The notes below the pieces were generated by a model that was given only the letters and a program-made list of their open reading frames with translations, made no database searches and was not told the DNA's origin. Shown piece after piece: positions 11,653 through 13,796 of a stretch of DNA of 64,000 nt. Both the position numbers and the translations under genes were made by a program. The stretch covers positions 2,972 through 66,971 of the forward strand of contig JAKPCH010000069.1 in assembly GCA_029553375.1 (NCBI GenBank). Direction: 5' to 3'. Positions within the stretch are counted from its first letter, which is position 1. Each line of letters begins with the position of its first letter. This DNA is from Deltaproteobacteria bacterium (lineage in GTDB: Bacteria > Desulfobacterota > Syntrophia > Syntrophales > UBA8958).

Positions 11653-13542
11653 TCAGATCCAGCGCTCCGACCTCTGCCTCTGTTCGTACTCCTCCCTCAA
11701 GGCGATCTGGGTCGCCTCGGCGATGTCCTCCACCCGTTTGACCCAGTCCTCGAATTTGATATCCACGCCGAAGATGCCCACCATCTCGTCCCGCTCGTCC
11801 ATGATGGGGGCCGAGACGGTGATACACAAGGCGCCCGTCATCTTGGAGATGTAGAAGTTCGTGACGTGGATCTTCCCCGTCTGGAGAGGCTTGATGAACC
11901 ACTCCCGGTCCGACTGGTCGGTGCCCACCCCGTAGTTCTCGTACTTGGCCCGGTCGGCGATGTTGGTGATGTTCCTCGTGATCTTCCGACCGTTCATGTC
12001 CACGACGTAGGCGAACTGGATGGAGGGGTTCTCCTCGATACACTGCTGCATGATGGGCTCCTGAAGCTCGGGCTTCATGGTCTTCATCACGGGGTGTTCG
12101 ATCACCTGCTTGACGACGGAGACGGCCGCCTCGGCGGCACGGTGCTTGATCTTGTCCAGGTCGGACATGAAGAGCTCGGGCAGGTACTTGCGGACCCGCC
12201 TTTCCATCTCTTCGTTGGAGATGCTCGTCACACGCCCCTGCTCGTACTGATCCATTATCCACTTGTGGATCTTCGAGATGCCGGGGTGGCGCTTGTCGAC
12301 GGCGTTTTCCCCCGTGAGGCCGAGGTGGGAGTTGATCCAGAAGGCGATGCCCGCCTTGCCCGACTTGTCCGTGATCATGGGGACGATGGGGCGCTTGAGG
12401 ATCTTGGTCGTGTCGAAGATGTTGTAGATCTCCTCGTTCTTGATCAGGCCGTCCACGTGGATGCCCGCCCTGGTCACGTTGAAATCGGCCCCGACGAAGG
12501 GGTAGTTGGCGGGGATCTTGTAACCGATCTCCTTCTCGAAGTACCTGGCGATGTCGGTGATCACCGTCGTGTCTATCCCGTCGTGGCTCCCCTTGAGGCC
12601 TATGTACTCCATGATCAGGCCCTCGAGGGGGGGGTTGCCCGTCCTCTCTCCGAGACCCAGGAGGGTACCGTTGGCGGCGGCGCAACCGTACAGCCAGGCC
12701 GTCGTGGCGTTGATCAGGGCCTTGTGGAAGTCGTTGTGACCGTGCCACTCGAGGAGATGACCGGGCACGCCCGCCTCCTCGATGAAGGCCCGCACGAGCT
12801 TGTCCACGCTCCGGGGCAGGGAGGCGCCGGGATAGGTGACGCCGTAGCCCATGGTGTCGCAGAGGCGTATCTTGACGTCTATCCCCGATGACTCGCGGAT
12901 TTTCATCAGTTCCAGGGCGAAGGGGATGCAGAAACCGTAGATGTCGGCCCTCGTGATGTCCTCGAAGTGGCAGCGCGGGACGATGCCGGCCTCGATGATG
13001 GCCCGGACGATATCCAGGTATTCCTCCATGGCCTGCCGCCGCGTCTTGTTCATCTTCAGGAAGATGTGGTAGTCAGACACGGACGTCAGGATCCCCGTCT
13101 CTTTGAGGCCCGCCTCCTTTACCAGGGGGATGTCCTCCCGGCTGGCCCTGATCCAGCCCGTGATCTCGGGATAGGTGAATCCCCTGGCCTGGCACTGGGC
13201 CACGGCCTCCCGGTCCTTATTGCTGTAGAGGAAGAACTCGGTCTGACGGATCACCCCCTCCTCGCCCCCCAGGTGGTGCATGAAGGTGTAGAGATCGACG
13301 ATCTGCTTCACCGTGTACGGGGGCCGGGCCTGCTGGCCGTCGCGGAAGGTCGTGTCGGTAATGAAGAAATCCTCCGCCGGGCTGATGGCGATGATACGGT
13401 GATCGAAGTCTATCCGGGAGACCTCGTCGTAGGGGAACACCTCCTTCTGCAGGTTGGGTTCCTCCACATCCTTGAGTTCATGACGCCAGAACTTGGTGTG
13501 TTCATGGTCCAAGACCCTTTTCGAGGGGTTCCATCTTGCCAT
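11653..13542 (-). CDS. HMGL-like (DRE-TIM) Claisen-condensing synthase of the homocitrate / Re-citrate / isopropylmalate synthase family, fused to a C-terminal Cache-like domain
   Basis: The ORF track start at 13563 is TTG; I prefer ATG 13542 (MARWNPSKR) with AAGGAG 9 nt upstream. N-terminal motifs are ITDTTFRDGQQA, CHFEDITRAD and EWHGHNDFH. The last roughly 150 aa (QFAYVVDMNGRKITRNI...SDREWFIKPLQTGKIHVTNFYISKMTGALCITVSAPIMDERDEMVGIFGVDIKF) match the Cache/PDC sensor pattern. No TM segment is present. Confidence 0.85.
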   Translation of the reverse strand: MARWNPSKRVLDHEHTKFWRHELKDVEEPNLQKEVFPYDEVSRIDFDHRIIAISPAEDFFITDTTFRDGQQARPPYTVKQIVDLYTFMHHLGGEEGVIRQTEFFLYSNKDREAVAQCQARGFTYPEITGWIRASREDIPLVKEAGLKETGILTSVSDYHIFLKMNKTRRQAMEEYLDIVRAIIEAGIVPRCHFEDITRADIYGFCIPFALELMKIRESSGIDVKIRLCDTMGYGVTYPGASLPRSVDKLVRAFIEEAGVPGHLLEWHGHNDFHKALINATTAWLYGCAAANGTLLGLGERTGNPPLEGLIMEYIGLKGSHDGIDTTVITDIARYFEKEIGYKIPANYPFVGADFNVTRAGIHVDGLIKNEEIYNIFDTTKILKRPIVPMITDKSGKAGIAFWINSHLGLTGENAVDKRHPGISKIHKWIMDQYEQGRVTSISNEEMERRVRKYLPELFMSDLDKIKHRAAEAAVSVVKQVIEHPVMKTMKPELQEPIMQQCIEENPSIQFAYVVDMNGRKITRNITNIADRAKYENYGVGTDQSDREWFIKPLQTGKIHVTNFYISKMTGALCITVSAPIMDERDEMVGIFGVDIKFEDWVKRVEDIAEATQIALREEYEQRQRSERWI

Positions 13543-13561
13543 TTCTGTCTGCTCCTTCTTC

Positions 13562-13599
13562 AAAAAAAGGGGGGCGCCCGGTTGCCCCAGGCGCCCCCC
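13562..13599 (-). terminator. Intrinsic terminator (10-bp GC stem plus T7) abutting the RBS of the synthase gene
   Basis: The minus strand reads GGGGGGCGCC-TGGGGCAACCG-GGCGCCCCCC TTTTTTT, followed immediately by GAAGAAGGAG and the ATG at 13542. Confidence 0.7.
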
Positions 13600-13752
13600 G
13601 AAAGATCTCGTCTTTCGGCTTCAGGTACTGGAGGTCGCCTGGATAGGCAAGAGGCGCTGGTTCAACGCCTTCTCCTGTCCATGTTCCGGGCGCCGTTCCG
13701 CGGGGTTCTCCGTCGGGATTATAAGAGGCAGTTCTACTCTCATACGGGACCC

Positions 13753-13781
13753 TAAATATCTTTATCTTAGTGCCTTGTCAA
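13753..13781 (-). promoter_or_regulatory. Sigma70-like promoter candidate for the synthase leader
   Basis: On the minus strand: TTGACA (13781-13776), a 17-nt spacer and TATTTA (13758-13753). It starts 16 nt after the aspS stop. Confidence 0.4.
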
Positions 13782-13796
13782 CAAGAATTCTTCCCT

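Follow-up and report, generated by a model that had tools for sequence, protein, structure and literature searches.

On the minus strand of the 64,000-nucleotide stretch of Deltaproteobacteria DNA analysed here (the window) lies a gene for what is, by sequence comparison, almost certainly a Re-face citrate synthase, whose C-terminal tail is predicted to be a cytoplasmic single PDC/Cache module. The enzyme and its architecture are largely known, being those of a characterised protein; the point of interest is the Cache tail as a candidate regulatory module. Conservation of its predicted pocket suggests that the tail probably binds a small molecule, and we put at about even the chance that it confers allosteric feedback by an amino acid, probably one of the glutamate family.

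The open reading frame runs from ATG 13542 to TGA 11653 and specifies 629 residues, 72.1 kDa (Table 1). An alternative in-frame TTG upstream, at 13563, would lengthen the product to 636 residues; the ATG is favoured because GGAG stands before it at 13552-13555 and close homologues are 629 aa long. The genes on this strand follow the order hisS, aspS, synthase, with a UvrD-family helicase gene convergent to them. Upstream of the terminator-like hairpin (13599-13562) is a promoter-like element, TTGACA-17-TATTTA, at 13781-13753; the ~150 nt (146 nt) between the two, just upstream of the synthase ribosome-binding site, fold better than shuffled sequences (z -3.1, terminator left out). A conserved riboswitch or attenuator is not supported here, despite the z value: the interval matches no Rfam family at threshold and finds no homologue in 200 genomes of the order except chance-level matches of 22-44 nt, and the content of this slot varies, relatives having in it a gene for a LysM protein, its remnant, or almost nothing. 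At about a third of related loci the slot holds a gene for a ~160-aa LysM-motif protein followed by a similar hairpin, and at one (L083) the remnant of such a gene; the upstream intergenic region of Syntrophus aciditrophicus is ~105 nt long without a terminator, as against ~255 nt with one here. The likeliest reading of the interval is that a small transcription unit once stood there and left this remnant, the synthase being expressed by read-through or from an unrecognised promoter, and the hairpin is peripheral to the main finding.

Table 1. Features of the synthase gene and its upstream region (window positions).
Feature	Position	Strand	Basis
Re-citrate synthase gene (probable), catalytic DRE-TIM part plus C-terminal PDC/Cache tail	11653..13542	-	ORF; 504/629 identity to Q2LTE1
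DRE-TIM barrel, residues 61-333, Pfam HMGL-like; R67-D68 and metal-binding H267-x-H269	12544..13362	-	Pfam, conservation, fold
Post-barrel helical subdomains, residues 336-458; present too in the clostridial-type orthologues that lack the tail and end nearby	12169..12537	-	model, alignment
C-terminal tail, residues 459-629: long N-terminal helices, single PDC module, C-terminal helix	11656..12168	-	models, fold search
PDC/Cache core, residues 497-599	11746..12054	-	Pfam PF22673 above cut-off
Predicted pocket R546, W548, F549, Y564, S566, T569, D594	11761..11907	-	profile alignment to PctA/Tlp3/KinD, conservation
Shine-Dalgarno-like AAGGAG, ending 9 nt before the synthase ATG	13552..13557	-	sequence
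Intrinsic-terminator-like hairpin (13 pairs, 12 G-C) plus T7, abutting the synthase ribosome-binding site	13562..13599	-	sequence
Synthase leader with promoter-like element and terminator-like hairpin	13543-13796	-	sequence

The original prediction, made from the DNA alone, had seen in this frame an HMGL-family synthase with the motifs DTTFRDGQQ and HGHNDFH. Both are present, at residues 63-71 and 267-273, together with a Pfam HMGL-like match (residues 61-333, E 2e-29), and R67, D68, H267 and H269 are unchanged in 89 homologues. The full-length AlphaFold model (pLDDT 87) has a barrel folded like those of homocitrate, isopropylmalate and citramalate synthases; no close relative with a solved structure was found in the PDB, where the best matches are ~25% identical. 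The protein aligns over all 629 residues, without gaps and with 504 identities (80%), to a sequence (ABC77353 / UniRef100_Q2LTE1; our P0192) whose exact look-up returns 'Citrate (Re)-synthase, Syntrophus aciditrophicus SB'. The architecture of Q2LTE1 differs in nothing: the length is the same, the tail is 74% identical and the pocket residues are the same. In both organisms the gene is flanked by aspS and a convergent uvrD, and the order hisS-aspS-synthase is common to both. In the tree, the synthase and Q2LTE1 sit together in one starred Syntrophales clade.

The S. aciditrophicus enzyme is a known, isolated Re-citrate synthase, of a kind whose genes are often misannotated (PMC12016533). The curated LeuA, NifV, HCS and CimA models all score our protein far below their cut-offs (best 137 vs 485 bits). 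The purified S. aciditrophicus enzyme reportedly used only acetyl-CoA and oxaloacetate, and is said to be a homotetramer of ~73 kDa tagged subunits; the mass calculated for Q2LTE1, 71.8 kDa, is, with a Strep-tag added, compatible with that figure, and by this agreement the enzyme that was purified very probably carried the tail. The link of the family to Re-citrate synthases drawn at the outset stands; the substrate, which had been treated as an open question, appears largely settled as oxaloacetate plus acetyl-CoA, given 80% identity to Q2LTE1 and the same length. Re-citrate synthases of the clostridial type (Clostridium kluyveri type; Li et al. 2007, as cited in PMC12016533) belong to the same catalytic clade but end near residue 455-460, without the Cache tail. 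The comparison was with sequences from unnamed Clostridia: one of 464 aa has 53% identity across residues 19-452, and one clade member bears the JGI label citrate (Re)-synthase.

The genome context agrees. No match to Si-citrate synthase (PF00285) was found in the organism's own genome, which is 100% complete and, to go by the named genomes closest to it, Syntrophales-like, and a gene for a 668-aa aconitase-family protein adjoins an isocitrate-dehydrogenase-like gene. Among 301 genomes of the phylum, the synthase occurs alone in 122 and Si-citrate synthase alone in 121, while 37 carry the two together and 21 lack both, where independence would give 83 with both and 67 with neither; kin genomes are not independent and kinship inflates any test, so that these counts serve as description only. 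The Re and Si types largely replace each other across the phylum, in the pattern expected of two alternatives. The five HMGL-like matches in the organism's genome are the synthase, one CimA-family protein above cut-off (768 vs 450), two HMG-CoA-lyase-like proteins and one carboxylase subunit; a canonical LeuA is not among the five. The genome also has leuB/leuC-like genes (G000, C51:1165-4024 and C56:71420-73252), and isopropylmalate synthase activity may be a second function of the CimA-family protein, or an assembly gap may conceal leuA.

The C-terminal stretch that had been quoted as Cache-like is present in the translation, and its assignment held up in profile and fold searches. Residues 497-599 match MCP-like_PDC_1 (PF22673; E 3e-13, 50.5 bits vs a cut-off of 27). 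A match to dCache_1 (502-598, E 2e-8) covers only positions 62-153 of that 240-position profile and stays under cut-off because the protein has a single module where the profile spans two; in each of the 80 homologous tails examined, both PF22673 and PF02743 find a match (E<=0.001). The AlphaFold model of the tail (pLDDT 91, pTM 0.86) contains one PDC module, and the top rows of a fold search with it are Cache/PDC sensors throughout, Foldseek agreeing: WalK (Z 16.4, rmsd 2.6, 134 aligned), KinD (Z 16.2, rmsd 3.5, 146 aligned), Tlp3 (Z 14.8) and CitA (Z 14.5-14.7). The module follows the two post-barrel subdomains, the position that the feedback domain has in LeuA and CimA, and in the model a long helix, 461-481, connects it to them. 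A complex prediction with two copies of the tail scored 0.01, a value with no bearing on assembly either way. The cytoplasmic location first proposed is borne out: no transmembrane helix was found, the best 19-residue Kyte-Doolittle window (1.26) lying on a β-strand of the PDC core, nor a signal peptide, the N-terminus being charged and without a hydrophobic core as judged by inspection of the sequence.

The original prediction overlooked that the fusion is not special to this gene: it is the normal architecture of Q2LTE1 and of nearly all orthologues listed in the phylum. Both domains are present in each of the best 120 homologues. Because one collection of homologous loci over-represents tailed forms, prevalence was estimated by searching with the catalytic part: 148 of the 150 phylum matches listed lie in frames of at least 599 aa, open-frame length being a proxy for the tail that was verified in five long and two short cases. 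The two short members were confirmed as tail-less, and no detached tail gene lies close to either. Genomes labelled Nitrospirota, Lentisphaerota, Spirochaetota, Omnitrophota, Elusimicrobiota, Armatimonadota and others likewise encode tailed forms; in a record that bears the label Nanoarchaeota archaeon (P0317), the tailed homologue has a worn tail and degenerate pocket. Judged by these comparisons, the fusion is old and widespread. That orthologues at 53-67% identity do without the tail suggests that it is accessory to catalysis and probably dispensable for it. The tree, built by a quick method with near-duplicates and broken frames excluded and long branches flagged, requires five tail changes, at least two of them forced; it has the tail lost at least twice within the tailed group and is compatible with a single gain or several. 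The short tail-like proteins that a search brought up look, for the most part, like pieces of the same enzyme from short contigs, and the Atlas lists some 150-180-aa PDC-like clusters without names.

Other family members are built differently. Two divergent ones (P0360, L139:4001-5824; and P0400) end in an ACT-like domain instead of the Cache tail, a weak Pfam match with TM 0.72-0.77 to ACT models. Another, 60% identical and seen on one contig only (P0316, L140:1533-3332), has an N-terminal response-regulator receiver domain and a histidine kinase gene directly upstream, making control of that enzyme by phosphorylation possible. Because distant members bear an ACT-like tail or an N-terminal receiver instead, the pattern suggests that regulatory modules have been added to the Re-citrate synthase family more than once. 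One Syntrophales family has, in addition, a second, tail-less paralogue of 462-464 aa, 36-39% identical (L115:3091-4482, L116:2767-4152, L117:1224-2609), which forms a long separate branch and passes no curated model.

The sensors PctA, Tlp3 and KinD align with a profile built from 80 tails (E 6e-11 to 2e-8), and the pocket was predicted from this alignment to solved structures: R546, W548, F549, Y564 and D594 are the equivalents of PctA R126, W128, Y129, Y144 and D173, and PctA Y121 becomes T541. In the dCache_1AA motif, defined on double-Cache extracellular sensors, R and W grip the ligand's carboxylate and Y and D its amino group; in PctA, D173A abolishes amino-acid binding and R126A lowers it 61-fold (PMC8915833). 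Part of the motif (W, Y, D) is common to amine binders (10.1101/2023.04.06.535858). The tail keeps four of the five motif residues (R546, W548, Y564, D594) at the canonical spacing (pattern in PMC11237719), with 14 residues between F549 and Y564 and 29 between Y564 and D594, and R-x-W-[YFW]-x13-17-[YFW]-x27-34-D is matched by this protein and by 81 of 89 homologues. The first aromatic is the one missing, here (T541) and in 80 of the 89: our protein has Thr at this position and many others have Glu, whereas the Desulfovibrionaceae branch, to which all nine homologues with the complete five-residue motif belong, has Tyr or Phe. Over 38 sequences of <70% identity, W548, F549, S566 and D594 are conserved at 100%, R546 at 89%, Y564 at 84% and Q509, T569 and T575 at >= 94%, with a PDC-core mean of 58%; on this alignment the predicted pocket residues are as conserved as the catalytic ones. 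The tail thus resembles the dCache_1AA sensors PctA, Tlp3 and Mlp37 (PMC8915833) in the fold of its ligand module and the spacing of R, W, Y and D, but differs in being a single, cytoplasmic module without flanking transmembrane helices, fused to a metabolic enzyme, and in having Thr for the first Tyr. With one module and that Tyr missing, it falls outside the formal definition of dCache_1AA, even if its mode of action may be similar.

It could be argued that such conservation is structural, and that the tail binds no ligand but serves assembly or stability, for example of the tetramer, or binds a protein. R-x-W-[YF] and a terminal G-x-D are indeed common features of the Cache fold, the S. aciditrophicus enzyme is reportedly tetrameric, and the repeated loss of the tail would fit; yet Q509, R546, S566, T569, T575 and D594 are 89-100% conserved across several phyla while the whole domain falls to 26-55% identity in distant homologues, and the tail-less relatives evidently assemble without it. 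We consider this explanation unlikely, if the most serious of those opposed to amino-acid sensing.

Also unlikely, and to be given slightly less credence, is that the tail of the same enzyme senses a carboxylate or oxo-acid (pyruvate, 2-oxoglutarate, oxaloacetate or citrate) and tunes citrate synthesis to carbon supply, in the manner of KinD and CitA. KinD of Bacillus subtilis (pyruvate-bound, 4jgp) is the tail's top match both in Foldseek and in pairwise sequence comparison; R546 aligns with the KinD arginine that is mutated in structures 4jgq/4jgr (R131A), and the Y-x-S-x-x-T-G loop (Y564, S566, T569) is common to KinD and absent from PctA. The lack of the first motif tyrosine, and the Z values of the citrate-sensing CitA proteins, point the same way. 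KinD, however, is an extracellular double Cache with no equivalent of W548, and it has Ala where D594 is invariant in the tails; because this acidic residue is invariant, a cationic amino group in the ligand is favoured, and the nine homologues with the complete amino-acid motif likewise speak against a simple carboxylate. From its sequence the pocket appears to be a hybrid, leaning to a ligand that bears an amino group.

Far less probable is that the catalytic part uses another oxo-acid, alone or besides the citrate reaction, as an isopropylmalate, homocitrate or citramalate synthase, the tail sensing the matching amino acid. The superfamily is the same, and leuB/leuC-like genes lack a separate canonical LeuA among the five HMGL-like matches; against this stand the low scores of the curated models, the 80% identity to the characterised Re-citrate synthase in the same clade, the separate CimA-family protein that passes its own model, and a distribution complementary to that of Si-citrate synthase. 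That the C-terminal region is a LeuA-type regulatory domain (the outcome that would have overturned the original prediction), or the product of an assembly error or frameshift, has the position of the domain for it and nothing else and can be discounted: the HMM search gave no LeuA_dimer match, structure prediction and fold search gave a Cache/PDC fold only, and the single uninterrupted frame recurs in 120 or more protein clusters and in numerous finished genomes.

Feedback by an amino acid would work as follows. The DRE-TIM barrel, with a divalent metal, would condense acetyl-CoA and oxaloacetate to citrate, which would pass by way of isocitrate and 2-oxoglutarate to glutamate; where Si-citrate synthase is lacking, the synthase would be the first committed step. 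The tail would bind an α-amino acid, its carboxylate on R546/W548 and its amino group on Y564/S566/D594, and helix 461-481 together with the post-barrel subdomains would relay the signal that slows the enzyme. We infer the effector from pathway logic: in such anaerobes the 2-oxoglutarate that goes into Glu, Gln, Pro and Arg comes by way of Re-citrate synthase (PMC12016533), so that the natural candidate would be glutamate or one of its relatives (Gln, Pro, Arg). The arrangement would then parallel LeuA and CimA in having a C-terminal sensor of the end product, although the regulatory fold of LeuA is unrelated to the tail. Both of those are DRE-TIM synthases of this design, LeuA being subject to feedback by leucine. 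Of the Cache domains themselves, found in a survey with signalling output domains, 78% are extracellular, YkuI_C and Diacid_rec being intracellular (PMC4822843); YkuI_C, which 14 of the 80 tails match weakly, is thus a precedent for an intracellular Cache family, but YkuI is a signalling (EAL) protein and not an enzyme of central metabolism. A literature search that took in few subscription journals turned up no report of in-cis regulation of a metabolic enzyme by a Cache domain, and no paper on control of Re-citrate synthase or on its Cache tail (SYN_02536 and DVU0398 included).

In public records the family widely goes under the wrong name of histone-lysine N-methyltransferase, triose-phosphate isomerase or 2-isopropylmalate synthase, so that citrate synthesis escapes notice when metabolism is reconstructed; the first two names are applied systematically, and the NCBI records of the characterised S. 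aciditrophicus enzyme are affected. If the tail is a feedback sensor, Cache domains would be seen to act as in-cis allosteric modules of metabolism. The wider proposal, which we advance tentatively and at somewhat less than even confidence, is that a central biosynthetic enzyme took over a chemoreceptor-type amino-acid-binding Cache module as its allosteric feedback domain, through which glutamate or a relative may control the entry to glutamate synthesis across Desulfobacterota and scattered anaerobic phyla, gut Desulfovibrio and Bilophila among them. Such a sensor would account for the way in which sulfate reducers and syntrophs limit the carbon that they commit to glutamate.
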